This document shows positions 45,358-63,637 of a stretch of 64,000 bases of DNA, piece after piece. The notes under the pieces were generated by a model. That model saw only the letters and a list, made by a program, of their open reading frames with translations. It was not told where the DNA came from and searched no databases. Source of the stretch: an uncultured bacterium (GTDB lineage Bacteria; Acidobacteriota; Thermoanaerobaculia; Multivoradales; JAHZIX01); assembly GCA_965368975.1 (NCBI GenBank), contig CBDUPA010000003.1:192001-256000 (forward strand), written 5' to 3'. Every line of letters starts with the position of its first letter. Positions within the stretch are counted from its first letter, which is position 1. The translations under genes were made by a program, and so were the position numbers.

Positions 45358-45585
45358 GCTTCTCCACAAGAGATCTCGACGAAATGGTTTTAGCGGGTTT
45401 TTGTCGCCAGGGACGAGCAAGCCCGCGTTCTGCGGGAACCAAGCCATCTGTCAAGAGATTGCCCGCTGGAGGAGGGGCTCCGAGGGGCGAAAACAACCAA
45501 TGAGAGATGAGGGTATCGTGGGGAAGGCTATGGTGTCCAGCTCGGGTCGGCGCCGCCAGACCTAGGGCTCAGCAAGACCTCAGGC

Positions 45586-46911
45586 TCAGCGACCGACCGC
45601 CGCTAGATGGACTCGGTTGCGGCCCCCACGCTTGGCTCGGTAGAGCGACGTGTCGGCGAGTTCTAGGACGTCCGGCGCTTTGCGCTGCGCCGGCCCGCGC
45701 TGGGCCGCGCCGATCGAGACGGTCACGCGCAGTTGATTCTGACGTCTGGCAGGCGCCTGGCCCCGGTTCTTGCGGTCGTTCGCCTTGGGGGTCTTGCGTG
45801 CTGGCCGGGGTGCTCGGCGCACCATGAAAGCTGTGTCGGCAATGCGCTGGCGCAGAGCCTCCAGGTGTTCTCCGGCTTCGACCAGGTTACGGCCTGGAAA
45901 GACGATCGTGAACTCCTCGCCGCCGTACCGGTACGCGTGTCCGCCGCCGCCGACCGTGTGCAGCTGTGCCGCGACCATGCGCAAAACCTGGTCGCCGACG
46001 TCGTGGCCGTGGCGGTCGTTGAGTTTCTTGAAGTGGTCGATGTCGACCATCGCCAGAGAGTAGCGGCCGGACAGCTGGCGTAAGCGATCTTGGAGGGCCC
46101 GCCGCCCGGGCAGTCCCGTCAGCTCGTCGCGGTAGGCGAGGGCGTAGCTGACCTCCAGCGTCGTCAGACCGAGCAAGAGGGTGCCGAGGCCGAGCAAGAG
46201 ATGCGCGCGTGGCTGCAAGGCCAAGGTTTCGAGGCTGTGGTGAGGCGGCCAGACGAGGAGCGGGACGGCGAGCGAGACCCAGGCGAAGGCGCGCGGCACT
46301 GGGTCGCGGGTGGGCAGGTAGCGGCCCAACTGCACGCAGGCGAGCAAGCCGAAGAAGGCCAAGTGCGGCCACGGTACGCCTGCCTCCGGCAGGCCCAAGT
46401 GCTGGTCGATCCAGCCTCCGGCGTCACCGACGAGCCAGCGGACCAGGGGCGAGGCCAGGGCATCCTCGATCTGCCCGTCTGCCGCCGCCGTCCGTCGTAC
46501 CACCCAGGCGATGAGCGCGGCGGGTAGCAGGAAGAGGGTCAGTTGCAGACCACCTTTGAGGGTCAGCAGACCGCGCTCCGGTAGCAGGGACGCGGCCAAC
46601 AAGGCCAGGCCGGCGAGGAAGGGCAGCAGGGTCAGCAGGCGTGCGAGGAGTTCCTCCAAGGGCGCGCTCGTGCTCGAGGTGACGAACAAGTGGACGGCCT
46701 GATCGCTCAGAGCCAGGACCACGATGCCGAAGATCAGCCGGCTGCGGTGGAAGCGAGCGGCGAGCAAGGCTAGGACCAGGCACAGTGGCCACAAGGGCCA
46801 AGCCAAGAGCGTCGTGATGCCGGCTCCGGCTTCGAGCTGCCGCAGAGCCAGCCAGAGAAGCGCCAGGGCCGCGGCGCCGGGCCACAGGCAGGAAAACAGG
46901 CTGCGTATCAC
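45586..46911 (-). CDS. Membrane-bound diguanylate cyclase (GGEEF)
   Basis: Multiple TMs; DELTGL, DIDHFKKLND..GH..GD, RYGGEEF, VTVSIG; GTG 46911 overlaps the ppk1 stop. Confidence 0.92.
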   Translation of the reverse strand: MIRSLFSCLWPGAAALALLWLALRQLEAGAGITTLLAWPLWPLCLVLALLAARFHRSRLIFGIVVLALSDQAVHLFVTSSTSAPLEELLARLLTLLPFLAGLALLAASLLPERGLLTLKGGLQLTLFLLPAALIAWVVRRTAAADGQIEDALASPLVRWLVGDAGGWIDQHLGLPEAGVPWPHLAFFGLLACVQLGRYLPTRDPVPRAFAWVSLAVPLLVWPPHHSLETLALQPRAHLLLGLGTLLLGLTTLEVSYALAYRDELTGLPGRRALQDRLRQLSGRYSLAMVDIDHFKKLNDRHGHDVGDQVLRMVAAQLHTVGGGGHAYRYGGEEFTIVFPGRNLVEAGEHLEALRQRIADTAFMVRRAPRPARKTPKANDRKNRGQAPARRQNQLRVTVSIGAAQRGPAQRKAPDVLELADTSLYRAKRGGRNRVHLAAVGR

Positions 46912-49787: not shown

Positions 49788-51131
49788 ATGAGCAATCTTC
49801 TGATCGTAGGTATGCAGTGGGGTGATGAGGGCAAGGGCAAGATCGTGGATCTCTTGTGCCCGGCCTTCGACGCCGCTGTTCGCTATCAGGGTGGACACAA
49901 CGCCGGTCATACGGTGAAGTTCGCGGATCGACACTTTTCGCTCCACCTGATCCCCTCGGGCATCGTCCACGGCGGCAAGCAAGCGGTGCTCGGCAACGGC
50001 ATGGTGATTGCGCCCGAAGCTTTCCTGAAGGAGCTCGACGGCCTGCGCCAGCAGGGGATCGACGTCGAGGGACGCCTGTTCGTCTCGGACCGTGCTCACG
50101 CCGTGCTGCCGTACGCCGTCGATCTCGACCAGGCGCGCGAAGCGGCGCGCGGTGACGACAAGATTGGCACCACGGCGCGCGGTATCGGCCCGGCCTACGA
50201 AAGCAAGACATCGCGTTTCGGTTTCCGGCTCGGCGACCTCGGCACAGCTGCGATGGAAGCTCGGCTGGGGGCCCAGCTGGCGCGCGTCCAGGCCGAGCTA
50301 CAGTCGTTGGGTGCCGCCCCTGCACTGTCGCAAGCCGAGCTCGTGGAACGCTGCGGACGGTGGGCTGAAGAGCTGGCGCCGTACGTCTGCGATACGGTTC
50401 AACTGCTGCACGGCTGGCTGCGCGAGGGGCGTTCGTTGCTGCTGGAAGGTGCCCAGGGCACGCTGCTCGACATCGACCACGGAACCTATCCCTTCGTCAC
50501 GAGCTCCAACTCGACCGCTGGCGGTGCTTGCACCGGTACCGGTCTGCCGCCGCGCGCGATCGACGGCGCGCTCGGCGTGCTCAAGGCCTACACGACACGC
50601 GTTGGCGAGGGGCCGTTCGTCACCCAGGCGGAGGCCGAAGCGGCCGAGCGTCTGCGGGCTCGCGGCAACGAATTCGGCACCACGACCGGGCGCCCGCGCC
50701 GCTGTGGCTGGCTCGACCTGCCGGCGGTGCGCTACGCCTGCCAGGTCAACGGGTTGGATGCCATTGCCCTGACCAAGCTCGACGTGCTCGACGACCTGGC
50801 CGAGATTCCGGTCTGCGTGGGCTACCGTTTGCCTGACGGCCGCCGCGTCGACGACTATACGCGCGCCGTCGAGAGCACGGCGGGCGGTACGGTAGAACCG
50901 ATCTATGAGACGCTGCCCGGCTGGCAGCAGGACACCGTCGGCGTGCTCGACTTCGACGCGCTACCGCAAAGGGCCCGGGAGTACGTCCGCTTCGTCGAGG
51001 AGCAGGCCGGAGCGCCGGTTGCGTTGATTTCGAGTGGGCCTCGGCGGGAGGAAACGGTGGTGCGCGAGTTGCCGATCGTCGAGCAGATGTTGGGGGATGG
51101 GGTGGAGGTGGTGCGGAGGCAGTTGCGGTAG
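49788..51131 (+). CDS. purA: Adenylosuccinate synthetase
   Basis: GMQWGDEGKGK, GGHNAGHT, EGAQG, GTYPFVTSS, EFGTTTGRPRRCGW. Confidence 0.97.
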   Translation: MSNLLIVGMQWGDEGKGKIVDLLCPAFDAAVRYQGGHNAGHTVKFADRHFSLHLIPSGIVHGGKQAVLGNGMVIAPEAFLKELDGLRQQGIDVEGRLFVSDRAHAVLPYAVDLDQAREAARGDDKIGTTARGIGPAYESKTSRFGFRLGDLGTAAMEARLGAQLARVQAELQSLGAAPALSQAELVERCGRWAEELAPYVCDTVQLLHGWLREGRSLLLEGAQGTLLDIDHGTYPFVTSSNSTAGGACTGTGLPPRAIDGALGVLKAYTTRVGEGPFVTQAEAEAAERLRARGNEFGTTTGRPRRCGWLDLPAVRYACQVNGLDAIALTKLDVLDDLAEIPVCVGYRLPDGRRVDDYTRAVESTAGGTVEPIYETLPGWQQDTVGVLDFDALPQRAREYVRFVEEQAGAPVALISSGPRREETVVRELPIVEQMLGDGVEVVRRQLR

Positions 51132-51182
51132 GGGGAGAAAGGCTAGTTCAGCGCTTAAGCACACCTGTCCGAGGAGTAGAGA

Positions 51183-51551
51183 ATGGCTATCATGTCGGCG
51201 GCTGAACGTGCGGCGCAGATCTGGGCGGTTCTCGGACTTGCTGCACGGAATCGGCAGATCCTTACCTACAAGATGGTCGGTCGTCTGATAGGTGTACCGG
51301 CACATGGCCTAGGACAGCTTCTTGAGCCGATTCAATCGTTCTGTCTGCTCAACCAACTTCCGCCGCTCACAATTTTGGTAGTCTTAGAAAAGACAGGGTT
51401 GCCGAGTACCGGATTTAGTGGAGCGCCCGCTGATGAGTTGGCGAGGCAACAGCTCGATGTATTCGCTTTCGATTGGATTGAGCATGGAGCTCCGACGCCC
51501 GATGAACTGGCGCAGGCGGCGGATGAGATGAAGCATCGACAGAACTCTTGA
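51183..51551 (+). CDS. Hypothetical protein (possible winged-helix: LTY....LIG..LPPLT.LVV....G.P..GF)
   Basis: GAGGAG RBS; 122-aa ORF at the start of the AT-richer islet. Confidence 0.65.
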   Translation: MAIMSAAERAAQIWAVLGLAARNRQILTYKMVGRLIGVPAHGLGQLLEPIQSFCLLNQLPPLTILVVLEKTGLPSTGFSGAPADELARQQLDVFAFDWIEHGAPTPDELAQAADEMKHRQNS

Positions 51552-51760
51552 GTATTAGGAGCACTGGAGAGAGTATGAATTTTCAGCTAGATGGCAAGGA
51601 CTTGGAGCTTATTCTAGAGTCTCTGAGATACACGAAGGAGAGGTTCTCGACCTACGATGGCTACCCATCCGAGGACTTCAGGAAGGAAAGGATTGAGCAG
51701 GTTGAACGCACGCTAGCAAAGCTGCGTTCTGCCAAGTCTACGACTGAGGGTGCAGCATAG
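51548..51760 (+). CDS. Small hypothetical protein (start possibly the internal ATG giving MNFQL)
   Basis: GGAGAG upstream of the internal ATG; protein-like charged helical composition. Confidence 0.5.
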   Translation: MSIRSTGESMNFQLDGKDLELILESLRYTKERFSTYDGYPSEDFRKERIEQVERTLAKLRSAKSTTEGAA

Positions 51761-51826
51761 AGCTTCTGAGCTAGCTGCCGAGAGTGGCGGAGGAGAGGAG
51801 CTAGTTCTTTCCCTTAAGGAGTTATC

Positions 51827-52573
51827 TTGCAAAAGACTGTGAAGCACGATTATCAAGCCTGGCTTCTTCCCGAGAACGTACTAGGCGCCATTCAGACACT
51901 AGCGTTAATCTTTGCTGGGATGTGGGGTATTTTTATTTTCGTGAAGTTCGAAGAGGCGGAAAGATCTCTTCAGGCGGAGTTACTGAAAAGTCAAAATTCT
52001 CAGGCAGAACTCTCTCAGCAGATCGCGTCGTTGGAACTCCTGCAGCAGGAGAATCAGGTGCGCACAATGCAAAGTGCACGGCATGCCATAGATCAGAGTA
52101 TCGAGATTCAAACCATTGAGAGTGAAGAAGAGCGGAATACCTATCTTGTGACATATGAGTATGCAGTCTACAATACGGGGGACTCAGCCATTGAAGTTAC
52201 CTATATAGTTGTTTATGCATACATCTTTGATAACTTCTTTTTGGCGCCTATGCGGGCGATGGAGGTGCCTAGATTTGGTACTGAACTAGGGTCTGGATGG
52301 GAGCCGATTCTCGATAAGGGGTATTACTATGGTCCTCACTGGAAAGAAGGAATGACCTTTGTCTCGAAGCAGGGAGGAAGAGCAGAATTTCTGAAGGGTG
52401 GCGGAGGTACCTCAGAACTTGACCCTTCAGAACGGTCTGTGGGTGATGTTCAGCTGCTGATTAGGGCTGAGCCTGGTAGTATCATCGGATTCGAAGCAGT
52501 GATCGGTATCAATGGAGGGAAGGACCCCGTTGACCGATTGCATTTGAGAGATAAGGCGCTCCTCTTGGAGTGA
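51827..52573 (+). CDS. Hypothetical protein: TM helix, coiled coil and beta-rich C-domain
   Basis: TAAGGAG RBS before TTG; 248 aa; codon usage richer in A/T than the flanking genes. Confidence 0.7.
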   Translation: MQKTVKHDYQAWLLPENVLGAIQTLALIFAGMWGIFIFVKFEEAERSLQAELLKSQNSQAELSQQIASLELLQQENQVRTMQSARHAIDQSIEIQTIESEEERNTYLVTYEYAVYNTGDSAIEVTYIVVYAYIFDNFFLAPMRAMEVPRFGTELGSGWEPILDKGYYYGPHWKEGMTFVSKQGGRAEFLKGGGGTSELDPSERSVGDVQLLIRAEPGSIIGFEAVIGINGGKDPVDRLHLRDKALLLE

Positions 52574-52629
52574 GGAGATCACTGCCATTTTGAAGGGAGA
52601 ATGTGTTGTTAAAACCACCTTGGCGACCA

Positions 52630-52899
52630 GTGAAGCTGACTCTTGGGCTTGTCTTCGTGGGATTGTGTGCGGGTTGCGGAGGGAGCACACTAGAACAGGG
52701 AACGAGTTCAGGTGAAGCAGTTGAAGTGACATCAGAGTCAATTGAAGAAGCAGCGGAAGACACTGCAGATGAGGCAGTGGGCGCTGCAGATGAGGTAGAG
52801 GACGCTGCAGATGAGGCAGAGGACGCTGCAGATGAGGCAGAGGACGCCTCTACGGATGCAGAGGAAGGCACTGGAGGACCCGATCCAATAGGTAGCTGA
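52630..52899 (+). CDS. Small putative lipoprotein with acidic heptad repeats
   Basis: (M)KLTLGLVFVGLCAGC lipobox-like signal followed by EDAADEA repeats. Confidence 0.55.
   Translation: MKLTLGLVFVGLCAGCGGSTLEQGTSSGEAVEVTSESIEEAAEDTADEAVGAADEVEDAADEAEDAADEAEDASTDAEEGTGGPDPIGS
52756..52860. repeat. About five tandem 21-bp repeats (gaggacgctgcagatgaggca)
   Basis: EDTADEA/VGAADEV/EDAADEA/EDAADEA/EDASTDA. Confidence 0.85.
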
Positions 52900-52999
52900 T
52901 GCGGACGTGCACTGACTCGAGGTTGAGCTTCAGGCTTGTGCCATTGGAATTGCTGTTCGTTCTTCGCCGAGTTGCGTGACCTGTGCATACTGAAGTCAT

Positions 53000-54508
53000 T
53001 TAGGCCGGTTCGAAGCAGGCGTGGAATCCTAGCCGCACCGGCTTCGGTAGCGGCAAGCGTGCTACTGGCCCGGCCGCGACGTCGAAGGCGTCGAACAGCA
53101 GGAAAGCACCCGTACCTGTCTCGGCGGCGAATTCTTGGATCAAGATCAGGCCTTCGTCCGTCTTCTCGGGATGCGGCAGGAACGTCGGTTCACCGCCCAG
53201 GTAGCACTTGGGCGGAGCTTGCCAGAAGCCAGCGGCGCCGCCGCTCGACTTGAGCTTGGGCGTGTCCTTCCAGCTCAGGTGCACGAGACGATCAAAGAAC
53301 TTCCGTCCCGGCTTCGCTGTGTGCGACAGGGCGAGGACCCAGAAGTCGTCATAGGGTTGTTCCAGACGCCGTGGATCGATGTGCGGGAAGTCGCACATCA
53401 GGTCGTGGCCCAGTTCTCGACGCTCGACCAGCTCACCGGCTCTGGGATCGAGTACGAAGCGCACCGGCCGTGCATGGCGGACGTCTTCGAACAGGTGATC
53501 GGGGACGCCGTACTGGTCGTAGACGGGGCGTTCGAGTTCGATCACGTCGACCACCAGGTAGGTCTTCTCTCCATCGCGACGCTCGAAGCTGTTGACCAGG
53601 TGCAGGCAGTAGCGGTCGCCCAGTTCGACCTCGCAAAGGGCGCTACCGTCGTCGCGGCGGGCGATCAGTAGCTTGCTGCCGAGCGGTTGGGTTTGACCTT
53701 CGAGCGTGGGCCGCCAAGTCAGGGCATCCATCAGCGTCGCCTGGCTGCCCATCAGCGCGTCCATGTCGAGCACGTAGGGACTCAGATAGATCACCAGGTG
53801 GTGCGGCGCCAGGGCGAAGTCGTGCACCGAGCGCGGAGCATCGAGAGGCAAGCGCTGACGGTAGATCGACGCGCCCTGGGCATCGAAACGGTAGACATGC
53901 ACGCACGGTCGGCGAGCGGCGAAAGAAACGCCGAAGTTGAACAGCTCGCCGCTCTGGCCGTCGATCTTCGGGTGCGCCGAGAAGGGGCTGATGGCGTTCA
54001 GGCGGCCGTCGAAGGTGAAGACCTCTTTGGTCTCGAGGGTCTCTGGATCCAGTTCCCAGGGTAGGCCTTGTTCGCCAAAGGCCAGCAGCGTGCCGGCTGC
54101 CGGGTAGATGCTGACGTTGAGCGGGGACTCGAGACCGATCCCGTGCTTGAGCTGGTCGTCCTCGAAGGCGGTGCCGAAGGTGCGGTACAGCGCGTGTCCG
54201 GCGGCGTCTTCGTCGCGCACCTTGGTGCCGTGGACGAAGCGGTGGGTGAAGCGGACACGATCCTGCGTTCCGTTGCCGGTACCGGCGCTGCCGCCAAAAC
54301 GCAAACGGCTGACCTGGCCGTCACCATCCAGCCAATGTCCATAGCGCTGGGTGCCACGGCGAAACCGCGCAGGGCCGTTGAGGTAGTAGTTCCCGCGCAG
54401 CCAGGACGGAATGTCTCCTTCGATCTCGGTCAACTCCAGGTCGCCTTCCCACAATTCGAGGTCGAAGGCGCGTTCGAGCAGGGGAGCGTGGTCGGCGTTG
54501 GGCATCAT
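53000..54508 (-). CDS. Carotenoid oxygenase / lignostilbene dioxygenase / RPE65-family non-heme iron enzyme
   Basis: EGDIP..LRG.YY.NGP, HWLDGDG, E.G.P...DP.TLET; four Fe-ligand His in FSAHPK, SVHDF, CLHLVNSFE and GFHACF; DFP and EP.F. Confidence 0.93.
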   Translation of the reverse strand: MMPNADHAPLLERAFDLELWEGDLELTEIEGDIPSWLRGNYYLNGPARFRRGTQRYGHWLDGDGQVSRLRFGGSAGTGNGTQDRVRFTHRFVHGTKVRDEDAAGHALYRTFGTAFEDDQLKHGIGLESPLNVSIYPAAGTLLAFGEQGLPWELDPETLETKEVFTFDGRLNAISPFSAHPKIDGQSGELFNFGVSFAARRPCVHVYRFDAQGASIYRQRLPLDAPRSVHDFALAPHHLVIYLSPYVLDMDALMGSQATLMDALTWRPTLEGQTQPLGSKLLIARRDDGSALCEVELGDRYCLHLVNSFERRDGEKTYLVVDVIELERPVYDQYGVPDHLFEDVRHARPVRFVLDPRAGELVERRELGHDLMCDFPHIDPRRLEQPYDDFWVLALSHTAKPGRKFFDRLVHLSWKDTPKLKSSGGAAGFWQAPPKCYLGGEPTFLPHPEKTDEGLILIQEFAAETGTGAFLLFDAFDVAAGPVARLPLPKPVRLGFHACFEPA

Positions 54509-54516
54509 CGTTCTCC

Positions 54517-56382
54517 TCAGGTGGAGCGGAAGCGGTCGAGGACGGTCGGGTCGAGTTGCCAGGCATGAGCCCGGCCATCGGCGTGGTCGACAGCCAGAGC
54601 CGCCCAGGTCTCGGGCATGAAGTCCAGCGCGTCGAGATCGAGGGATGCGACGAAGCCGGCGTCGCTGCGCAGCTCGGGTCGTTCGAGCACCACCGAGGCC
54701 ACGTGGGCGGCGAGAAAGCGGGCGAACTCTTCGAGGCTGGTGAGCTGGGCATCGAGCACCCGGCGGGCCTCATCCGCGTCGACGCCGACCTCATAGAAGG
54801 TCGTTTCGGCGCGGCGCAGCGGTGCCAGGTCCATGAAATCGAAAAAACACGGCTCCCCGCGACCGGCGCCCGGGTGTGCGCGCTCGCTCTTCCATTGGAA
54901 GAAGCCGCTGAGCAGGCGCTGGACGCCGTGGTTGGTCGGGCCCAGGCGGGCGAAGCGGCGCAGCCAGCCGAGCGCGAAGCGGCGGTCGGTGAGCAGGTCG
55001 TTGATGAAGGGGAAGACGTAGTAGGCGAAGTAGACGGTCAGCTCCCAGGTGTACTTGAGGCTGAAGGCTTCCTGGTCGCCGAGGGCGTCATAGCTGACGG
55101 TGTACGTCGGTTCGTAGGCGGCGTAGACGCCGCGCATCAACTGCTCCGAGAGCGAGCACTTGTCAGCCAGGCGCTGGCGGCCGGCTTGGTCCGTCGTGTC
55201 GGTCTCAATGGCATCGACGATCAACGTGTTGTAGACGGAGATCAGGTCACTGCCGGGACTATAGAGCGGGTCGCTGAAGCGCCCGGCCTCACCCGCCAGC
55301 GCCCAGCGTCGCGGGTGGAGGGTCTGCTCGCAGTCGTAGGAGAAGTCCTTGTAGCCACCGAAATCGACCACGTTCCGCCGCGGTAGATCGTGGGCGAAAC
55401 AGGGGAAGCGCTCGCACACCCAGGCGGTTGCCTTGTCGACGGTGAAGACGTCGCGGTAGTCGACCACCGCCTTGTCGAAGACCAGGCCGAGGCTGGTCTT
55501 GCCCTGCAGCGGGATGACCCAGAACCACAGCCCCTCGTCCATGAAGTGGTTGGTCGCTAGCCACGCAGGAAGGTGGCCTTGGTGGCGTCGCTGAGGTTTC
55601 TTGCGGATCTCGTCGCTGCTGGCGTCGGTGAGGCGATCGACGTCGACCAGACCGTCGACCCACCAGAAGAAGGCGGCGTGGTCGATCGAATTGTCTCGCG
55701 TCAGCTTTTCCTGCTTGGCCAGCAGCTTCCGGCGGCCGGTGGTGTCGACCACCCAGCCGGCGGCGACCTCGTACTCCGGTGCGTCCGTCTCGGGCCCACC
55801 TGAGTAGGTCTTCTGCGGGTCGCCGAGACGGAAACGCAGCTCATGGTCCTGGTCGGGGTCAGCCGGCGAGGAGCCGCGGTCGAGGTCGACCTGCAACTGC
55901 TGTACGCCCAGGCGAGCCGTGAAGCGTGGATTCTGCAGATTCCGCCGGAGCAGTTCGGCCTCGAAGGTATTGCGATCGAGCTGGTAGCTGGCGATGTTGG
56001 AGAACGGCCGAATGTAGGACTGGCTGTATTCCTCGAAGCGCTGGTTGCCGGCGCCGGGTGTCTTCCAGTAGAAGCGGAGGTTGTACTTCATGAAGTGGTG
56101 CAGGAAGAGATACTCTTCCAGCTCCAGGACGCGCGAGAAGTAGTAACCGGCGAGTTGCACGCTCGACTCTCCGACTTTCTGCCGCTTTTGCGGCAGCAGG
56201 TCTCGACGCTCCAACAACAGTACGCTCTTGTTGGTCTTGAGTAGCAGGTGGCGCGCGAGGCTGAGGCCGGCCAGGCCGCCACCGAGGATCACGACGTCGT
56301 AGCGCGCCGCAAGTGCCGTGCCGTCGGCGCTCGCGTTCACCTGCTCGGCAGTGAAATCCACGACGGGTTGAGGGGAGTTCAT
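54517..56382 (-). CDS. Flavin-dependent halogenase-like enzyme
   Basis: GGGLAG FAD motif, KVGES, candidate catalytic Lys in HFMKYNLRF, YQLDR..FE, WFWVIP (WxWxIP), GEAGRFSDPLYSPG; ATG 56382 overlaps the upstream stop. Confidence 0.85.
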   Translation of the reverse strand: MNSPQPVVDFTAEQVNASADGTALAARYDVVILGGGLAGLSLARHLLLKTNKSVLLLERRDLLPQKRQKVGESSVQLAGYYFSRVLELEEYLFLHHFMKYNLRFYWKTPGAGNQRFEEYSQSYIRPFSNIASYQLDRNTFEAELLRRNLQNPRFTARLGVQQLQVDLDRGSSPADPDQDHELRFRLGDPQKTYSGGPETDAPEYEVAAGWVVDTTGRRKLLAKQEKLTRDNSIDHAAFFWWVDGLVDVDRLTDASSDEIRKKPQRRHQGHLPAWLATNHFMDEGLWFWVIPLQGKTSLGLVFDKAVVDYRDVFTVDKATAWVCERFPCFAHDLPRRNVVDFGGYKDFSYDCEQTLHPRRWALAGEAGRFSDPLYSPGSDLISVYNTLIVDAIETDTTDQAGRQRLADKCSLSEQLMRGVYAAYEPTYTVSYDALGDQEAFSLKYTWELTVYFAYYVFPFINDLLTDRRFALGWLRRFARLGPTNHGVQRLLSGFFQWKSERAHPGAGRGEPCFFDFMDLAPLRRAETTFYEVGVDADEARRVLDAQLTSLEEFARFLAAHVASVVLERPELRSDAGFVASLDLDALDFMPETWAALAVDHADGRAHAWQLDPTVLDRFRST

Positions 56383-57659
56383 GATGGACCTCGAGTTGCG
56401 GACGACGTCTCCGGCGAAGCCTGGCTCTCTGCAGCAGACAGCTCTTCCGCCGCGGATAGTGGCCGGTTGCGGCCGTAGGTCTCGTGCGCGTCGACGAGTT
56501 CCGAGCTGGCGATGGCACCACCCATGGACAGCTCCCCCGCCAGCGCCATGGCGACCGCGATTTCGGCGAATTTGCGTGCCTTGCCACTGCCGACGCAGTC
56601 GAGCATGCGCAGGCACTCTTGGCTGGTACCGAGCGCGGTGCCGCCGCCGACCGTGGCGATGGTGAGCGCGGGGAGGGTGACGCTGGCGTAGAGGTCACCG
56701 TCGTCGGTCAGCTCGAACACCGTGATGCCGACCGCCGCGTTGGCGATGTTGGCGACGTCCTGTCCTGTGGCGAGAAACAGCGCCGTCAGACCGTTGGCCA
56801 AGTGTCCGTTGTAGCCCAGGGCAGCCGTCTGCAAGTGCCCGATCACCGTGTGCTGCCACATGCGCACCAAGGCCTCGGGGCTTGCGTGCAGAAGGCTACG
56901 GCAGATATCCGCCGGGATGCGAGCCCCGGCGACGGCGCGCTTTCCCTTGCCTCCGGCGAACAGAGAGCCGGCAGCACGTTTCTCGGCGCTGTAGCCACTG
57001 AAGATGTAGAACTCGGGTGCGTCCAGATGGTCGCGCAGCCAGGCGCACACCGCCTCGGTGGCTTTCACCGCCATGTTCATGCCCTGCGCATCGCCGGTAG
57101 AGAACACCAGGTTGAGAATCAGCTTGCGGCCCACGGGCTGCAGCTCGATGCGTAGCAGGGCACCGTGCTGGGTGGTGGTGGCGGCGGCGGCGCGCAGTTG
57201 CTCGAGGTGCGGTGGTAAGCGCTGGGCGAAGGCGTGAGCCCGCATGGCGGTGTCGAACAGGAAGACGGGAGAGACGCGATTCTCGTCGCTGTAGAGGCGC
57301 GCTTCGGCACCGCCAGCCCGTGTCAAGGCGACCATGCCGCGCTCGTAGGAGCGCACCAGGGTACCTTCGCTGGTCGCCATGGGGACGTAGAAGACACCGT
57401 CGGCATGCTCGCCGCGCACGTGCAACGGACCGGCGACGCCGAGTGGCGTTTGTACCGAGCCGATCGGGTTCTCGATGTTGCCGCGCAGGCTCTCGCCCGC
57501 CAGCGAGCAGCGCCCGACGTGCTCCAGGCTGGCGCCTGTCTGCGCCTCGACCCACTGGCGTCGACGCTCGATGTCGGCGTCGCTGTAGCCCTGCTTGCGC
57601 AGGCGTGGGACCAACCGCGGTGCGCGCTGAGTGGGCTCTTCTCTCGTGTCGCTCGTCAT
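56379..57659 (-). CDS. HMG-CoA reductase (class I)-like thioester reductase
   Basis: NIENPIG, PLGVAGPL, PMATSEGTLV, TGDAQGMNM, ATGQD.AN, TVGGGT, AGELS and C-terminal His (DAH). Confidence 0.9.
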   Translation of the reverse strand: MTSDTREEPTQRAPRLVPRLRKQGYSDADIERRRQWVEAQTGASLEHVGRCSLAGESLRGNIENPIGSVQTPLGVAGPLHVRGEHADGVFYVPMATSEGTLVRSYERGMVALTRAGGAEARLYSDENRVSPVFLFDTAMRAHAFAQRLPPHLEQLRAAAATTTQHGALLRIELQPVGRKLILNLVFSTGDAQGMNMAVKATEAVCAWLRDHLDAPEFYIFSGYSAEKRAAGSLFAGGKGKRAVAGARIPADICRSLLHASPEALVRMWQHTVIGHLQTAALGYNGHLANGLTALFLATGQDVANIANAAVGITVFELTDDGDLYASVTLPALTIATVGGGTALGTSQECLRMLDCVGSGKARKFAEIAVAMALAGELSMGGAIASSELVDAHETYGRNRPLSAAEELSAAESQASPETSSATRGPS

Positions 57660-59044
57660 GATGCCTCGTCCTCACGCTGCAGAATCAGCGCACATGCGTT
57701 GCCGTCTAGGCCGAGAGCCGTGACCAAGCCTCGGCGCACGGACGTGGAGCCGGCCGGACGCTGCCGCAGGGGTTGGCAGGTCGCCTGGACCGGCAGTGGG
57801 AAGGCGTCGGGAAGCTGCTCGAGTCCATGAACGCCCGGTAGCTCTCCCTGCGCCAACGCGGTGATCAGCGCTACCGTTTGCAGGGCTGGACCGGCGCCCA
57901 AGGCTTCGCCGAGCATCGACTTGACGGCGGTCACCGGCGGTAGGGACGTGCAGGAGCGGAAGGCGAGGGCCAGCCCGGCGGCTTCGTGCTGATCGCCTGC
58001 CGGACTGCCGTTGGCCGAGCAGCTGACAGCGTCGATGTCGTCGATCTGCACTTGTGCGTCGTCGAGGGCGATGGCGATAGCACGAGCGACGGCGTCGGCG
58101 GCCGACTCGGCGTCCCGCCCGCGCGACGGATCGAAGGCGTTCCCGTGACCGACCAGTTCAGCGTGGATCTGGGCGTCGCGCTCGCGTGCCGCGGCCAGAG
58201 GTTCGAGCATCAGCAGCGCCGCTCCTTCGCCGAGTGCGAAGCCGTCCCGGCCGGTGTCGAAGGGTACCGGTCGCTGCGTCTGCGTTGCTGCTCTCTCGGC
58301 GCCTGGACCGTTCGAGGCTGATCCGCTGAGATCCGGCCCACCCGTCATGCGTCCGGTGCGCAGAAAGCCGAAGAAGGAAGGCAGGCTCAACTCCTCGGCG
58401 CCGCCTGCGAGCACGGGGCCACTGCGGCCGGAGCGCACCATTTCGGTAGCGTAGGCCAAGGCTTGCAGGCCGGACGTGCTACCGGCGCACAGCGTCGAGT
58501 TGAGGCCGCGCAGGTCGTGCCAGATGGCCGCCTGGCCGGCGGCGGCGTTGATCACGGTATTGGCGAAGTCGAGGGGCTTGGCATACTGCGGCCCGAGTTC
58601 CAACGCCCGTTTGTCGAACTGCACGATCGTGCGCACGCTGCCGAACATGGTGCCGAGGACCAGGCCGACTTCGTCCTCGGCGCGGCGCTCTGGAGTCCAG
58701 CCCGCTTGCTCGAGCGCCAGGTGTGCCGCCACCGTCGTCAGGCGTCCGGTTCGGTCGAGTGGGCGGAAGTTACGCTTGCCCAGGTAGTCGAAAGGAGAGA
58801 AGCCTTCGATCGGGGCGCCCAGTCGACCTTCGATCGCTGGGCGCAGGGCCTCCGGTAGTTCGCCGTCGTCGGGCATCTCGTGCAGCGGACGCAGCGCGCT
58901 GTTGCCGCGGCACAACGCTGCGTGGAGGGTCTCGGCGGCGTCGCCCAGCGGGCTCAGCAGGCCGATTCCGGTCACCGCCACGCGTGCGGCAGTCGGGTGG
59001 TGGACGGTGCCCGTGGTGTGCCCGTGTCGTGTGCCTTTTGACAT
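57656..59044 (-). CDS. Catalytically inactive ketosynthase / chain-length-factor-like subunit
   Basis: KS fold, but the triad is lost: ACAAG becomes GSTSG, HGTGT becomes SANGS, GHTMG becomes GEALG. Confidence 0.88.
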   Translation of the reverse strand: MSKGTRHGHTTGTVHHPTAARVAVTGIGLLSPLGDAAETLHAALCRGNSALRPLHEMPDDGELPEALRPAIEGRLGAPIEGFSPFDYLGKRNFRPLDRTGRLTTVAAHLALEQAGWTPERRAEDEVGLVLGTMFGSVRTIVQFDKRALELGPQYAKPLDFANTVINAAAGQAAIWHDLRGLNSTLCAGSTSGLQALAYATEMVRSGRSGPVLAGGAEELSLPSFFGFLRTGRMTGGPDLSGSASNGPGAERAATQTQRPVPFDTGRDGFALGEGAALLMLEPLAAARERDAQIHAELVGHGNAFDPSRGRDAESAADAVARAIAIALDDAQVQIDDIDAVSCSANGSPAGDQHEAAGLALAFRSCTSLPPVTAVKSMLGEALGAGPALQTVALITALAQGELPGVHGLEQLPDAFPLPVQATCQPLRQRPAGSTSVRRGLVTALGLDGNACALILQREDEAS

Positions 59045-59055
59045 CGTGGGTCCCC

Positions 59056-60294
59056 TCAGGCGGTCTTCCGAAAGAGTACGGAGGCGTTGTTGCCGCCGAA
59101 GGCGTAGGCGTTGTTCATCGCCACCTGGACGGTCACGTCGCGGGCCTCGTTGGGTACGCAGTCGAGCGGCATACAGTCTGGATCCTCCTCCTCGAAGTTC
59201 ATCGTCGGCGGGACCCGATCTTCATATGTCGCCAGGGCACAGACCGCAGCCTCGATCGCCGACGCGGCGCCCATGGTGTGCCCGAGCATGGACTTGATCG
59301 AACTCATCGGCGTCCTGCCCGCAGCGTCTCCGAAGACACGCCGTACCGCTGCACTTTCCAGGCGGTCGTTGGTCGGTGTGCCGGTGCCGTGGGCGCTGAT
59401 GTAGTCCACTTGCTCAGGACGAAGGCCGCATTCGGCGAGTGCCTTGCTCATCGCCCGTGCCGCCCCTCGACCCTCCGGGTGCGCTCCGGTCATGTGATGC
59501 GCGTCACAGGACAGGCCGTAGCCAGCAACCTCACTGTAAATCGTGGCGTCCCGTGCTACGGCACGCTCCCAGGGCTCGAGCACCAGCATGGCGGCTCCTT
59601 CACCTGGAATCATGCCCTTACGGTTGCGGTCGAAGGGTTGAACGCGCTCGGGGGCGATGGCTCCGACGCGCCAGAAGCCGGTGTAGGTGATGCGTGAGAA
59701 CGAGTCCGCACCACCTGCCAGCATGATGTCGGCGCGGCCGCTGCGCAGCACGTCGAAGGCGTGGGCGATGGCGTAGTTGCCGGCCGCGCAGGCTGCCGGG
59801 ATCATGGTGTTGACGCCCGAGAAGCCGAACTCCGCGGCCACGTAGCCCGGCACCACGTGGCAGGGGTAGAGGTTCATGAACTCCGGTCCCAACTCGGGTA
59901 GGGCCTGCGCAGCTTGGCGGTCATTGTAGTGCTCGACCTGCAGCGGTTCGCCGGAGGTCGTGCCGAGTGCCACGCCGATACGTTCGCTGCGGACGCCGTC
60001 ACCGAGATCGAGCCCGGCATCCTCGAGCGCTTGTCGCGTCGCCGCAATCGCCATCTGGGATGTGCGACCAATGTCGGCCGGATCGAGGTTGCGGACGTGC
60101 TGCGCGGCATCGAAGTCGCTGACTTCGGCGCCGCGGTCAGCGGTAAAGTTCGTGGTATCGAAGGAACGAACTGCGTGAATGCCGGAATCTCCGGCGAGCA
60201 AACGTTGCCATACCAACTGCCGACCGCTTCCCAGAGGGGTGACGAGGCCGATGCCGGTGATAGCGACGCGAGAGCAAGCGCTGCGCGTGGCCAT
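59056..60294 (-). CDS. Beta-ketoacyl-ACP synthase II (FabF-like / type II PKS KS), intact Cys-His-His
   Basis: PAACAAG, SAHGTGT, KSMLGHTMG, NAYAFGGNNA. Confidence 0.93.
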   Translation of the reverse strand: MATRSACSRVAITGIGLVTPLGSGRQLVWQRLLAGDSGIHAVRSFDTTNFTADRGAEVSDFDAAQHVRNLDPADIGRTSQMAIAATRQALEDAGLDLGDGVRSERIGVALGTTSGEPLQVEHYNDRQAAQALPELGPEFMNLYPCHVVPGYVAAEFGFSGVNTMIPAACAAGNYAIAHAFDVLRSGRADIMLAGGADSFSRITYTGFWRVGAIAPERVQPFDRNRKGMIPGEGAAMLVLEPWERAVARDATIYSEVAGYGLSCDAHHMTGAHPEGRGAARAMSKALAECGLRPEQVDYISAHGTGTPTNDRLESAAVRRVFGDAAGRTPMSSIKSMLGHTMGAASAIEAAVCALATYEDRVPPTMNFEEEDPDCMPLDCVPNEARDVTVQVAMNNAYAFGGNNASVLFRKTA

Positions 60295-60310
60295 GAGAAG
60301 CGAACTCGTG

Positions 60311-60583
60311 CTACGCGGCTTGCGTGTCGTCGAGGTGCTGCCGGCGAAGGGTTCCTTGCACCAGGTCGACGGCTTCTTGGACGTTCTTCAAACTCTGGAG
60401 CCGCTCTTCCGGCAAGCCGAGCTTGAACTCATAGTCGACGTCGACGGCGATCTCCAGAAGGGACAGGGAGTCGAGGTCCAGTTCGTCCTGGAACGAGGCG
60501 TTGTCCCCGATCTCTTCCGCCGGGATACCGGTGACGTTGGTGATGATCTGCTTGATTCTGCCGCGAAGTTCAGAGGCTTCCAT
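60311..60583 (-). CDS. Acyl carrier protein
   Basis: Acidic 90-aa protein with LDLDSLSLLEI (phosphopantetheine Ser); GGAGG RBS. Confidence 0.93.
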   Translation of the reverse strand: MEASELRGRIKQIITNVTGIPAEEIGDNASFQDELDLDSLSLLEIAVDVDYEFKLGLPEERLQSLKNVQEAVDLVQGTLRRQHLDDTQAA

Positions 60584-60755: not shown

Positions 60756-61481
60756 TCAAATGCTATCAGAAGTCGTCAGCCAGCCGCGTTCCTGCGCGAG
60801 GTGCACGGCCTCGTGGCGGTTCTCGACCTCCAGCTTGTCGAGGATGTGGTGGACGTGATTCTTCACCGTATGCACCGACAAGTGCAGTTCCTGAGCGATG
60901 CGTTTGTTGGAGGCACCGTGCGCGATCAGCTGCAGGACCTCCATCTCGCGCGCTGTCAGCGCCAGGGCCTCCGCCCTCAGCCGTTTGCGATGACGTGCTT
61001 CCAGCTGTTCAAGGTGCTTGAGCAGAGCGCGGGTGATTGCCGGCGAGCTGACGGCCTCACCGGCGGCGAGCCGGCGCACGGCGTCCGCAAGTTCCACCAG
61101 CGACGTGTCGCGCGACAGGTAGCCGCGCACACCGGCACGTACGCTCGGAAGTAGCAGCGTGTCGACATCGAACGGACCCAGCAGCAGCAAGCGCGCTCCA
61201 TCCAGCTCGCGTGCCAGGTCGCGGATCAACGACAAGTCCTCGGCGTCGGAGCGGGCCGGCGCAATCAGCACCACGTCCGGTTGCTGCTCGCGACCCAGTT
61301 CGAGAGCCTCTGCGGCGTCGCCGGTGGCACCAGCGACCTCGAGATCCTCGCCATCCAAGGCCAGGATCAGGCAGTCACGCAGCACCTTGTGCGGTGTGAC
61401 CACCAGCAGGCGGATTTTCGGTCTCAACGGTACGTCTCCCTGCAGCTTCGCTCCCACCAGCGAACCTGCTCTGCGTTCCAC
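60756..61481 (-). CDS. NarL/LuxR-family regulator with atypical receiver domain
   Basis: LTAREMEVL..G.SNK.IA..L..S..TVKNHVHHIL; receiver has VVTPH (no DD), VVLIAP (no phospho-Asp) and GYLSR (no Lys). Confidence 0.88.
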   Translation of the reverse strand: MERRAGSLVGAKLQGDVPLRPKIRLLVVTPHKVLRDCLILALDGEDLEVAGATGDAAEALELGREQQPDVVLIAPARSDAEDLSLIRDLARELDGARLLLLGPFDVDTLLLPSVRAGVRGYLSRDTSLVELADAVRRLAAGEAVSSPAITRALLKHLEQLEARHRKRLRAEALALTAREMEVLQLIAHGASNKRIAQELHLSVHTVKNHVHHILDKLEVENRHEAVHLAQERGWLTTSDSI

Positions 61482-61602
61482 GGCTGACCTCGTCCCGCCA
61501 GCGACGAGCCGTGGATTGCAGGACCGCCTGAGGATACCCGAAACGCTGTGCTTGTCAAAGCACCTGTTCCAGGGCGGTCACTGCCGGCATCGGCTTCGCG
61601 AT

Positions 61603-62367
61603 TCACCCGTCGAGTTCCTCATGGCGCTGCGTCTGCGACGATCGCGGTGCAGTCTCCTCTGCCCTTGAAGCTGGTGCCTCTGAAGCGGCTGCCTCTGAGG
61701 GGGGTGGCAGCCAACCACGGCGCTGTGCTTCGTCGACGGCTTGGGCGCGTCTGCGAGCGTTGAGTTTGTCCAGGATGTTGTGCACGTGGTTCTTGATCGT
61801 GTGGATCGACAGGCCGAGGCGCTCGGCCACGGCCTGATTGCCTAGCCCTTCCTGGATCAGCGTCAGGACATCCAGTTCGCGCGCCGTCACTCGTGGTTGC
61901 TGGTCCGAGGTGGTGGCCTGACGGTAGCGGGCTTGCAGCCGTCGGAGCAGAGCTGGCAACTCCTGTGGTGGGCAGCCTGCCTTGCCGCGCAGCGCTGGCC
62001 GCAGGATGTCGAGCAGCTCCCGGAAGCTGCATTCGCGCGACACGTAGGCGGGGGTCTTGTCCGCCAGTTCTGGCGGCACCATCAGCAACAGGCGGCAGTG
62101 ACTGGGCAGAGTACGCGCTACCTGGTTCAGTCGCAGCAGTTCCGTGGGGCGCCGTCCGTCGGTCTCTATGATCACCAGGGCTGGAGCCTCGGGCAGCAAC
62201 GGGGCAGTGTCGATGCGTAGGTCTGCCTGCACGACGGCGTGGTCTGGGAAGGCTCGCTCCAGGCGCGCGGCGAGGCCTTCACGCCAGACACCGAAATTAC
62301 TGAGCACGAGAAGTGTCGGACTGTCGAGCATGGTCTGGACCCGTTGGGAACGGCCCCTCGGTTGCAC
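61603..62367 (-). CDS. NarL/LuxR-family regulator with degenerate receiver domain (start possibly 62331)
   Basis: VTARELDVL..GLGN..VA..TIKNHVHNIL; receiver has LVIIE and appears shortened. Confidence 0.85.
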   Translation of the reverse strand: MQPRGRSQRVQTMLDSPTLLVLSNFGVWREGLAARLERAFPDHAVVQADLRIDTAPLLPEAPALVIIETDGRRPTELLRLNQVARTLPSHCRLLLMVPPELADKTPAYVSRECSFRELLDILRPALRGKAGCPPQELPALLRRLQARYRQATTSDQQPRVTARELDVLTLIQEGLGNQAVAERLGLSIHTIKNHVHNILDKLNARRRAQAVDEAQRRGWLPPPSEAAASEAPASRAEETAPRSSQTQRHEELDG

Positions 62368-62452
62368 AAGCCGTCTCAGCTGCCGAAGAAGAGGAGCCGA
62401 AGAAGAAATGGAGAGCTGCGCGGCGTCTACCGTGCTTCAGGAGGCCGCGTCT

Positions 62453-63157
62453 TCAGACTGGAGAGCGGAGCGTCGAGCGCCACGGAGACTCGCCTTCCAA
62501 GATGCCGCTTTCGTAGGCACAGCGAATGGCATCGCGCCGACGGCGAACCTGGAACTTCGTGAGGATGTTGTGCACGTGGTTCTTGATCGTGGGCACGGTG
62601 ATTTCCAGGCGAGACGCGATTTCTTTGTTGCGCAGGCCACCCGCCATGTGCTGCAGCACTTGCAGTTCGCGCCGCGTCATGGCCACTCTCGCCGGTGCGC
62701 CGGACTCTGGCTCGGCAGTGAGGAGGCAGCGTAGCCGTTGGAGGGCGGCATCGAGCACTGGTTGCCCGAGATTGGGTTGCCGGCGGTGAACTTGACGGAT
62801 GTTGCCCAGGAGCTCCGGGATGGAGGCCTGTTTCAGACTGACGCTGGCAGCACCGGCTGCCAGGAGCTGTACGACCTGCGCTACGTTGTCGGCATCCAGA
62901 CCGAAGGGCAGAATCTCGGCGGCGGAGCCGACGGTGCGCAACTGCCGGGTGATGTCCAAAGCACGGCGCGTCCCGAGTCCGGTGTCGAGCAGGACCACAT
63001 CCGCCTGGCTGCGTTGCAGACGCTGCTGCGCCTCGCCATCGAAATCCTGACTCTCGCCGGCTAGCTGCAACTCGGCCTGGTCCTCGAGACAGTCACCCAG
63101 GACTTCTCGCATCAGGCGGTGGCGGCAGATCAGGAAGACGCGAATGGGGTCGTTCAT
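62453..63157 (-). CDS. NarL/LuxR-family regulator
   Basis: MTRRELQVL..G..NKEIA..TIKNHVHNIL; VVLLD and Lys retained, but the acidic pair is replaced (LICRH). Confidence 0.88.
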   Translation of the reverse strand: MNDPIRVFLICRHRLMREVLGDCLEDQAELQLAGESQDFDGEAQQRLQRSQADVVLLDTGLGTRRALDITRQLRTVGSAAEILPFGLDADNVAQVVQLLAAGAASVSLKQASIPELLGNIRQVHRRQPNLGQPVLDAALQRLRCLLTAEPESGAPARVAMTRRELQVLQHMAGGLRNKEIASRLEITVPTIKNHVHNILTKFQVRRRRDAIRCAYESGILEGESPWRSTLRSPV

Positions 63158-63637
63158 GGCCAAGAAGGGGGTCCGACTGCACAAAGTTTTGCGCTACACG
63201 ACCCTTTGTCGATACTCATCAGATGTAAGATTCAATCGTTCGTGGGATTTCGAACGCTCCTGTGTTGCGATCATCGGTAACCCTACGTTTCAGGTCGAGC
63301 CGCGGCAATGAGTCGCAGGTCCTAAAAAGGATGCTGGCTCCTTAATGGTCGATCATAGATCTATGAATCAGTTCCCATTGTTGTATCCGACAGAGTAAAA
63401 AAGAACGATCGAGGAACGCTTGGGCGGTCGCGTCACGGCCTGTGGAAGAGAAATCGCCTGGGAGAGGTGGCTAAGTGGCACCGTGGGCGAAGCCGCAGGG
63501 GTTCAGGGTCGGTTGGCGGTGATGACAGGAATGCCTGTGCGAGCCGGACGGGGAGTTGCTGAAACAGCCCCCGAGAGCCAGGTCGTGCGCGCTGCTGCGG
63601 CTGCAGGAGAAAGCGGCCCGGCTCGTCCCGCAGGTGG

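Follow-up and report, generated by a model that had tools for sequence, protein, structure and literature searches.

An acidobacterial operon combining an anammox-like ketosynthase pair with HMG-CoA reductase, halogenase, and oxygenase homologs: a candidate arm of a widely distributed lipid-type pathway

Introduction

The closest described relatives of the system treated here are found in anammox bacteria, where the so-called Cluster I (KustE3603-3608; structures 9s5h and 9s5i) encodes the ketosynthases (KSs) amxFabF2 and amxFabFmut, which make up the chains of 9s5h, together with the acyl carrier protein (ACP) amxACP, the dehydratase amxFabZ, a phytoene-dehydrogenase homolog, and a B12 radical SAM enzyme (10.64898/2026.05.19.726425). 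According to the accessible part of that report, the two KSs form a heterodimer resembling a KS/chain-length-factor (CLF) pair, which decarboxylates malonyl-ACP and prefers C6-C8 probes over C16; the triad positions of the partner are occupied by Val or Thr and by Asn, Glu, or Cys, and the link between Cluster I and the ladderanes is still without experimental proof (10.64898/2026.05.19.726425). That such FabF paralogs would, together with phytoene-desaturase-like enzymes, make polyunsaturated chains is put forward in the accessible part of an older paper (PMC2649909). Here, a six-gene operon is described which is located on the minus strand at positions 53000-60583 of a 64,000-nucleotide stretch (hereafter the window) from the genome of a soil-type acidobacterium of the JAHZIX01 lineage (G000; hereafter JAHZIX01). 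The genome is 99.3% complete; its contigs are referred to below as C3, C5, C8, C12, and C16.

The operon encodes an ACP, an active KS resembling amxFabF2, a triad-less KS partner, a homolog of class I 3-hydroxy-3-methylglutaryl coenzyme A (HMG-CoA) reductase (HMGR), a flavin-dependent halogenase, and an oxygenase of the carotenoid-cleavage-oxygenase (CCO) family (Table 1). The genes are real, tightly coupled, and conserved, and reductase, halogenase, and oxygenase retain their catalytic motifs. The operon is one movable arm of a larger system, the other arm of which resides on contig C12 of this genome. The reading preferred here is that the six genes serve to build and tailor the chain as one arm of an uncharacterized lipid-type pathway that is modular and widely distributed, a proposal which we consider about evenly balanced between right and wrong. 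If it is true, hundreds of soil, sediment, and marine species would share an undescribed lipid or lipid-like product, and this product could be a candidate biomarker lipid for Acidobacteriota. The toolset would be unusual in that it unites a fatty-acid-type CLF pair so far studied only in anammox bacteria, a nonmevalonate relative of HMGR, a flavin halogenase, and a carotenoid-type oxygenase in a genome without any detected carotenoid pathway; for three well-studied enzyme families, this would mean a broader chemistry than known at present. An earlier note on this DNA, made from the sequence alone, had stated that no characterized cluster with this enzyme set was known to its author, and indeed no description of the combination was found in the literature searched, with subscription journals and supplements lying outside the scope of the search.

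The Ketosynthase Pair and Its Carrier Protein

The KS retains the Cys-His-His triad, and the motifs ACAAGN, SAHGTGTP, and GHTMGAAS are conserved in the alignment to 9s5h_B, which is also its best solved relative (E 3.4e-141, 474 bits); the next solved matches are the ishigamide KS Iga11 (6kxd; 323 bits), the best FabF (303 bits), and the actinorhodin KS (234 bits). In the partner, Ser, Asn, and Glu are aligned with the Cys, His, and His positions. Its best solved relative is 9s5h_C, that is, amxFabFmut (7e-60, 207 bits), with a FabF next (157 bits); Iga11 and the actinorhodin CLF reach 122 and 87 bits. Judged by these alignments, KS and partner are closest to the anammox amxFabF2/amxFabFmut pair among the solved KSs, closeness being expressed as scores against solved structures only and not as position in a tree with unsolved clades. 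The ACP carries a DSL serine motif, and in 25 of the 80 related loci described below an ACP ortholog with 45-75% identity stands at the head of the KS genes. The assignment of an active KS, a triad-less KS, and a dedicated ACP to a KS/CLF-type set, as made in the earlier note, is supported by the alignments.

The likeness to anammox Cluster I comprises the active FabF-like KS beside a triad-less partner, the dedicated ACP, and, in the cassettes of relatives, a phytoene-desaturase-like flavoenzyme, which in JAHZIX01 is absent from the window and encoded in trans on contig C8. On the other hand, the window contains neither a FabZ nor a radical SAM gene and has, in addition, the genes for the HMGR homolog, the halogenase, and the oxygenase, which are not listed for Cluster I in the accessible part of the report, where also the partner has Val or Thr instead of the Ser found here (10.64898/2026.05.19.726425). 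The window ACP is not specially close to amxACP, and the operon resides in an acidobacterium, whereas Cluster I belongs to anammox planctomycetes.

With the ishigamide-type highly reducing type II polyketide synthases (PKSs; Iga11/Iga12, 6kxd) the operon would share the KS/CLF heterodimer, a discrete ACP, and a nonaromatic unsaturated chain, and Iga11 is the second-best solved match of the KS; its score lies, however, far below that of the anammox protein (323 versus 474 bits), and the partner reaches 122 bits to Iga11. The Iga cluster has dedicated ketoreductase (KR) and dehydratase (DH) genes, which are without counterpart in the window: no KR, DH, or cyclase/aromatase domain was detected in Pfam scans of the six genes and ten selected flanking open reading frames (ORFs) at 45.6-64 kb. 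An aromatic or aryl-polyene PKS was considered as well and was ruled out by the KS/CLF similarity together with the lack of cyclase, KR, and DH genes in these scans; Ser, not Gln as in an aromatic minimal type II PKS, is found at the CLF active-site position. From the original description of the set as a minimal type II PKS of the fatty-acid-like or polyene kind, the fatty-acid-like, anammox-type character is retained, while an aromatic or aryl-polyene type is at variance with the 474 and 207 bits of KS and partner to 9s5h.

Distribution and Gene Neighborhood

The intergenic distances calculated from the ORF coordinates are, from the ACP gene to the oxygenase gene, 16, 11, -4, -4, and 8 bp, exactly as first reported for the six co-oriented genes, which form a tight, conserved unit. 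The 4-bp overlaps join the genes of KS partner and reductase and those of reductase and halogenase; the halogenase start was taken to be the ATG overlapping the upstream stop codon, while an alternative, longer GTG frame reaches position 56616.

Of 40 relatives from the same order, 29 have a full-length halogenase ortholog (E <= 1e-85, 49-63% identity). When one genome per species was scanned with a halogenase profile, 185,579 species in all, at least 598 stretches were obtained, at least 577 of which were confirmed, and the best 80 were kept. The labels among these best 80 of at least 577 loci are Acidobacteriota (Thermoanaerobaculia, Blastocatellia, Pyrinomonadaceae, and Candidatus Angelobacter), Gemmataceae, Pirellulaceae, Pirellula, Singulisphaera, Latescibacterota, Zixiibacteriota, and Poribacteria. 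The oxygenase gene lies at most 400 bp downstream of the halogenase gene in 58 of the 69 loci of this set having at least 1.7 kb of downstream sequence, and because of this direct succession the arrangement is far beyond chance. A second set of 20 loci from relatives, which shares many contigs with the best-80 set and is not independent of it, shows the oxygenase after the halogenase in 19 loci, KS and partner upstream in 13, and the reductase in 5.

Forty-six loci of the best-80 set are fully flanked, with at least 7 kb upstream and at least 3 kb downstream. They contain the oxygenase in 41 cases, the ACP-KS-partner group in 21, a desaturase-like gene in 11, and the reductase in 6; all six window genes occur together in 5. 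Conservation is centered on halogenase and oxygenase as an invariable core (58/69), while the complete set of six genes, as it stands in the window, is one of the less common arrangements (5/46). A phytoene-desaturase-like gene (PF01593) follows the reductase gene in 10 of the 12 reductase-bearing loci among the best 80, and the commonest full form is ACP-KS-partner-reductase-desaturase-halogenase-oxygenase.

The neighboring gene families were obtained by GC3-weighted clustering of the ORFs of the 80 loci; the commonest 20 were annotated, and the few remaining antisense calls were ignored. In many genomes, the halogenase-oxygenase pair sits between a patatin gene and the gene of family c7 within a UbiB/acyltransferase cluster, the usual order of which is given in Table 1; the c7 family consists of proteins of about 1,150 amino acids with a weak match to GDSL lipases. 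All five pair-embedded genomes without an adjacent KS that were tested carry a KS ortholog elsewhere, with 59-75% identity as compared with 38-44% for ordinary FabF-like copies, and in three of the five it is found on the contig of the halogenase. Since the modules travel together at the genome level and are reshuffled in position, their neighborhoods provide evidence that about 20 genes make up a single functional system.

These data bear on a possibility in line with the earlier note, namely that the operon by itself is sufficient for a small diffusible compound, a halogenated aldehyde or alcohol derived from a polyene and serving, for instance, as a signal or an antibiotic, and that the adjacency of UbiB and patatin genes elsewhere is incidental. 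Such a specialized metabolite would be in agreement with the compactness of the operon and its own ACP, with the three LuxR-type regulators encoded upstream, with the presence of antibiotic-pathway enzymes (tetracycline 7-halogenase, CmlS) among the solved relatives of the halogenase, and with the 21 of 46 loci in which the cassette has no large cluster alongside. It is nevertheless regarded as rather unlikely, given that genomes of different phyla repeatedly have the pair inside the lipid-handling cluster, that the reductase and desaturase-like genes move into this cluster, too, and that the operon is without an exporter or resistance gene; the broad, vertical-looking conservation (29 of 40 in the order) also fits a physiological lipid better than an accessory antibiotic.

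The Partner Cluster in JAHZIX01

In JAHZIX01, the system is split. The phytoene-desaturase-like gene, which is missing from the window, stands alone on contig C8; its product belongs to PF01593 and is 68% identical to the desaturase of the relatives. The lipid-handling cluster, minus the halogenase-oxygenase pair, is located at 68-89 kb of contig C12 (Table 1) and is headed by a second ACP with 60% identity to the window ACP. The earlier note had treated the operon as self-contained; the six genes do form one unit, but this unit is one arm of the system of about 20 genes, the rest of which lies on C12 and, in the case of the desaturase-like gene, on C8.

Table 1. Positions and composition of the operon, of the upstream regulators, and of the clusters discussed in the text; window positions are given without a contig label.
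Feature	Position	Strand	Description
ACP	60311-60583	-	90 amino acids; PF00550 PP-binding, 3.8e-11
Active KS, amxFabF2-like	59056-60294	-	412 amino acids; Pfam ketoacyl-synt N/C, 9.2e-42 / 1.6e-36
Triad-less KS partner, CLF-like	57656-59044	-	462 amino acids; ketoacyl-synt N/C, 2.4e-31 / 3.6e-16
Class I HMGR homolog	56379-57659	-	426 amino acids; PF00368 HMG-CoA_red, 1.7e-103
Flavin-dependent halogenase	54517-56382	-	621 amino acids; PF04820 Trp_halogenase, 7.1e-11, 42 bits (cut-off 21)
CCO-family oxygenase, predicted nonheme iron dioxygenase	53000-54508	-	502 amino acids; PF03055 RPE65, 2.6e-91, 307.5 bits
Three LuxR-type (GerE) regulators	60756-63184	-	Pfam
Lipid-handling cluster of related genomes, usual order, first part			acyltransferase (PF01553), UbiB/ABC1 kinase, c6, second weaker ABC1 protein, c16, c14, c3, patatin lipase
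Lipid-handling cluster of related genomes, usual order, rest			halogenase, oxygenase, c7, DinB-fold protein, often Na+/H+ exchanger
Partner cluster of JAHZIX01 (L112, L113), order, first part	C12:68000-89200	-	second ACP, PlsC/DAGAT-type acyltransferase, UbiB kinase, c6, degenerate UbiB, c16
Partner cluster of JAHZIX01 (L112, L113), order, rest	C12:68000-89200	-	three c14 paralogs, c6, patatin lipase, 1,186-amino acid c7, START-like c3, DinB-fold protein
Menaquinone-type operon (L110), order	C16:96000-114000		polyprenyl synthase, HMGR, UbiE-type methyltransferase, chorismate-binding enzyme, MenD-like thiamine pyrophosphate enzyme, UbiA prenyltransferase

Two families of the partner cluster were examined by structure prediction. 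The model of c14, which is present in three copies on C12, has a predicted local distance difference test (pLDDT) value of 78 and a predicted template modeling score of 0.82 and consists of two beta-barrels. The N-terminal barrel resembles pyocyanin demethylase (Z 12.4), the Diels-Alderases PloI4 (11.9), Cyc15 (11.7), AbnU (10.9), and PyrI4 (10.0), dirigent proteins (11.5 and 11.1), and allene oxide cyclase (AOC; 10.8); Foldseek gave a probability of 1.0 to dirigent and AOC chains. For c3 (pLDDT 77), a START/Bet v 1 fold is predicted, with Z values of 10.6 to a carotenoid-binding START domain and 10.4 to MLN64. These modeled folds would suit a system that binds, and perhaps cyclizes, a hydrophobic unsaturated chain, a shared fold being no proof of function. 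Look-ups of c14 and c3 in the ESM Atlas returned unnamed clusters and sub-threshold leads only, a sequence search of the PDB with the c3 and c6 profiles gave nothing at E <= 1, and c14 and c3 are unrelated according to profile comparison. An ORF of 1,358 amino acids comes after the C12 cluster.

The Reductase and the Question of Mevalonate

The reductase is class I by sequence, with the best PDB match to 6hr7 (1.6e-77), followed by plant and human HMGR. In alignments with 6hr7, human HMGR, and ten orthologs, E63, K227, D301, and H392 are nearly invariant and occupy what we take to be the catalytic positions of HMGR. With the class I enzymes of Methanothermococcus (6hr7) and human (1dq8) it shares the fold family and these Glu/Lys/Asp/His positions; it differs from them by forming a separate clade, by its setting in KS/desaturase/UbiB lipid clusters, and by reading EKR at the DKK motif. 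The position aligned with the Lys that presumably binds the statin carboxylate in human HMGR is variable. The score against the NCBIfam equivalog TIGR00533 amounts to 315.6 bits with a cut-off of 441.8, a cut-off that discriminates poorly here because the genome's other class I copy fails it, too (352 bits).

Altogether, three HMGR genes are present in the genome. Besides the window copy, there is a class I HMGR of 518 amino acids with an HMG-CoA_red_N domain, whose gene adjoins that of a UbiB/ABC1 kinase at C3:309.9 kb (L109, C3:308000-312000), and a class II HMGR, which passes its NCBIfam cut-off and is part of the menaquinone-type operon on C16. No match to IspG or IspH was found in the genome, so that the organism probably depends on mevalonate. 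About 10 kb beyond the window, there is a mevalonate-kinase-like gene (149.8 bits); for HMG-CoA synthase, no match to the Pfam N- and C-terminal domains was found in the genome, and NCBIfam gave 22 bits only. Prompted by this missing synthase, synthesis of an HMG-thioester by the KS pair was considered; it was rejected, as none of the cassettes contains an HMG-CoA-synthase-like enzyme and the reductase is absent from most loci.

When 201 genomes were sampled evenly across the phylum, a class I HMGR at E <= 1e-80 was present in 16, with identities falling into two bands of 53-57% and 40-44%, the latter being the C3 type of 518 amino acids, which occurs in 12 of the 201 genomes. Three genomes of another family (G139, G072, and G216) have, at the same threshold, only a cluster-type class I copy (53-57% identity), located in the order c7 - START-like c3 - (c6) - reductase - desaturase - acyltransferase - UbiB. 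All three possess IspH (about 1e-96), and their mevalonate-kinase-like hits score 64-89 bits versus 141-161 bits in the mevalonate-type genomes G021 and G014. When 14 cluster-type sequences were placed in a tree with 15 others of class I, one branch separated the two groups with 100/100 support, the root being unsafe because the branch to the class II outgroup is very long. The occurrence of cluster-type reductases in genomes that possess IspH and no convincing mevalonate kinase supports a nonmevalonate role; the clade is probably part of the lipid system rather than of mevalonate synthesis. The idea of a repurposed HMGR, as voiced in the earlier note, is hence upheld as probable. Most likely, the members of the clade would be NAD(P)H-dependent enzymes reducing an acyl thioester, a substrate that we infer.

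The same observations have to be held against an isoprenoid pathway, in which a true HMGR would boost the mevalonate supply, the oxygenase and the desaturase-like enzyme would generate a halogenated apocarotenoid from a carotenoid or another isoprenoid, and KS, partner, and ACP would make a separate acyl part. For such a pathway speak the complete set of catalytic residues in a class I enzyme closest to archaeal HMGR, the lack of IspG and IspH together with the nearby mevalonate-kinase-like gene, and the apocarotenoid oxygenase ACO among the best solved matches of the oxygenase; moreover, HMGR paralogs beside isoprenoid users do occur in this genome, since the class II copy is part of the polyprenyl/menaquinone operon. 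We nonetheless hold this pathway to be unlikely: the genome has no match to the phytoene/squalene synthase family, cluster-type reductases are found inside the lipid cluster in IspH genomes whose mevalonate-kinase-like hits are weak, neither a prenyltransferase nor a terpene synthase is among the annotated neighbor families, and the reductase start overlaps the stop of the partner KS by 4 bp.

Halogenase and Oxygenase

The halogenase contains the motifs GGGLAG, WFWVIP, and FSDPLYSPG, and in 15 orthologs GGGLAG, WxWxIP, FxDPxYSPG, and K99 are invariant or nearly so. K99 is aligned with residue 76 of CndH, presumably the catalytic Lys of that enzyme. The nearest solved halogenases are CndH, 8zop, CtcP, Bmp2, PltA, ChlB4, CmlS, and PltM, which match parts of the protein with E values of 2e-9 to 1e-4. 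The motifs GxGxxG, WxWxIP, and Fx.Px.Sx.G and the Lys position are shared with CndH, PltA, Bmp2, CmlS, and CtcP, several of which act on carrier-tethered substrates; in contrast to these enzymes, to which E values reach only 2e-9 to 5e-5, the window halogenase has an additional, conserved C-terminal region of about 200 residues and a signature of its own, H[FYL][ML]KYNLRF. By sequence, the family is a distant, long branch of the flavin halogenases.

Elsewhere in the genome, at C5:125000-141500, two halogenase-like genes (29-33% identity to that of the window) are accompanied by KS and KS-partner-like genes at 130.5-132.7 kb. This region is unrelated to the window operon and may be an aryl-polyene-type cluster.

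The oxygenase matches ACO (2biw), NdCCD (6vcf), and LsdA (6ojw) about equally well (about 1e-30), without clear assignment to a subfamily. The match to the RPE65 family covers the full length, and the four iron-binding His residues are aligned with those of ACO and LsdA. Both motifs on which the original annotation was based, WxWxIP in the halogenase and four His in the oxygenase, are real. At variance with LsdA, Phe and Gly replace Tyr101 and Lys134, which we assume to bind the 4-hydroxyl of the substrate phenol, and the NCBIfam model LigStilDioxAlpha gives 152.5 with a cut-off of 800; a lignostilbene-type role was ruled out by the exchanges at the Tyr and Lys positions. Further differences from ACO, NdCCD, and LsdA are the pairing with a halogenase and the host genome, in which no carotenoid pathway was found. 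Because no match to the phytoene/squalene synthase (SQS_PSY) family was found in the genome, the oxygenase is probably not cutting a carotenoid; carotenoids of the cell's own making and hydroxystilbenes are both improbable substrates.

The substrate question leads to a further interpretation, according to which the halogenase-like flavoenzyme and the oxygenase would modify or degrade an existing unsaturated lipid or an exogenous aromatic or alkene compound, with the KS genes as mere neighbors. Degradation of stilbenoids is a frequent function of bacterial enzymes of the oxygenase family, hydrolases of the patatin and GDSL types are encoded near the pair in other genomes, and in about half of the loci the pair is without an adjacent KS. 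However, the phenol-binding Tyr and Lys positions of LsdA are occupied by Phe and Gly, all five genomes tested without an adjacent KS still have the specific KS ortholog, three of them on the same contig, and 4-bp overlaps tie KS partner, reductase, and halogenase together. Catabolism or remodeling of this kind is consequently considered improbable, with little more than a slight chance of being right.

Proposed Pathway

In the lipid-type pathway preferred here, the KS/partner heterodimer would prime itself by decarboxylation of malonyl-ACP and elongate an acyl chain of short or medium length bound to the dedicated ACP, with KR and DH activities borrowed from housekeeping fatty-acid synthesis. 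Double bonds would be introduced by the phytoene-desaturase-like enzyme, acting in trans from C8. The halogenase might then act on an electron-rich enol or alkene carbon, its nearest solved relatives including enzymes for carrier-tethered substrates, and the oxygenase would cut or rearrange a C=C bond of the nonisoprenoid chain. The HMGR homolog would reduce the thioester to an aldehyde or alcohol, and the second locus on C12 would esterify, bind, and move the hydrophobic product. The order of these steps, and a product in the form of a small halogenated apocarotenoid-like aldehyde or alcohol, are purely conjectural. No flavin reductase, as would be expected to accompany a flavin halogenase, is encoded among the six operon genes, the rest of the genome not having been searched.

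Several points weigh against this proposal. Out of at least 577 loci, the 80 with the best scores were used; they are centered on the halogenase and come in many cases from related genomes, so that the fractions given above are descriptive and not independent. As judged from the alignments, the window reductase has kept all catalytic residues of a true class I HMGR and is about as close to the NCBIfam HMGR model as the other class I copy (315.6 versus 352 bits), and with IspG and IspH missing and an HMGR paralog in the menaquinone/polyprenyl operon, a true HMG-CoA role is possible in this genome; the absence of mevalonate kinase from genomes of the methylerythritol phosphate type rests on a comparison of scores. 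With regard to the anammox parallel, the window ACP scores 33 bits to amxACP as compared with 48 bits to ordinary ACPs, and no anammox-type dehydratase (FabZ) or radical SAM gene is present among the Pfam-scanned ORFs of the window; domains of the amxFabZ and B12 radical SAM types are likewise absent from the 20 annotated neighbor families, the rest of the genome not having been searched.

A more far-reaching version of the lipid-type pathway would have the cassette and the partner cluster make a new class of cyclized, possibly transiently halogenated, polyunsaturated lipids in Acidobacteriota, Planctomycetota, and allied phyla, following a logic akin to that of ladderane synthesis. The amxFabF-like KS/CLF pair and the desaturase would build a conjugated polyene on the ACP, the halogenase would activate and the oxygenase would trim it, and the triplicated, paired AOC/dirigent-like barrel proteins would cyclize it; the HMGR clade would represent a new family of acyl-thioester reductases, releasing the chain as an alcohol. 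This version is speculative and quite unlikely to be correct as a whole. If it were true, the anammox-type KS/CLF pair might be studied in growable, perhaps genetically tractable organisms, because some of the carriers belong to cultivated genera (labels Singulisphaera, Pirellula, and Pyrinomonadaceae).

Surroundings of the Operon

The three genes for LuxR-type regulators are consecutive, co-oriented with the operon, and located directly upstream of the ACP gene. Two of the three products have receiver-domain matches below the Pfam cut-off, and the third is without such a match. These proteins are possible regulators of the operon; the link is uncertain and the association weak because a pair of similar regulators precedes the ACP gene in just 1 of the 80 related loci (L064). 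A scan for promoters and terminators at 51-64 kb gave counts at or below the level of shuffled sequence and nothing of weight between the six genes, and scans for tRNA genes and Rfam families at 45-64 kb gave no matches. A search for sequencing runs with RNA evidence on the operon listed none.

Just past the oxygenase gene, at 51000-53000, about 2 kb have a G+C content of 51-53%, compared with about 65% around, and contain no recognizable genes. The ORFs of this stretch (51183-51551, 51548-51760, and 51827-52573 on the plus strand and 52509-52988 on the minus strand) have no NCBIfam match, and the two longest are also without a Pfam match or a counterpart in the related loci. A tandem repeat of 21 nucleotides at 52722-52865 would, read on the plus strand, give an acidic Ala/Asp/Glu heptad; the minus-strand ORF across it is of low complexity, rich in Ser and Ala, and probably no gene. 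The low-G+C stretch is followed, downstream of the operon, by purA and ppk. Farther along, a minus-strand ORF of 1,251 amino acids is located at 41692-45447, just upstream of a gene for a GGDEF protein (45586-46947).

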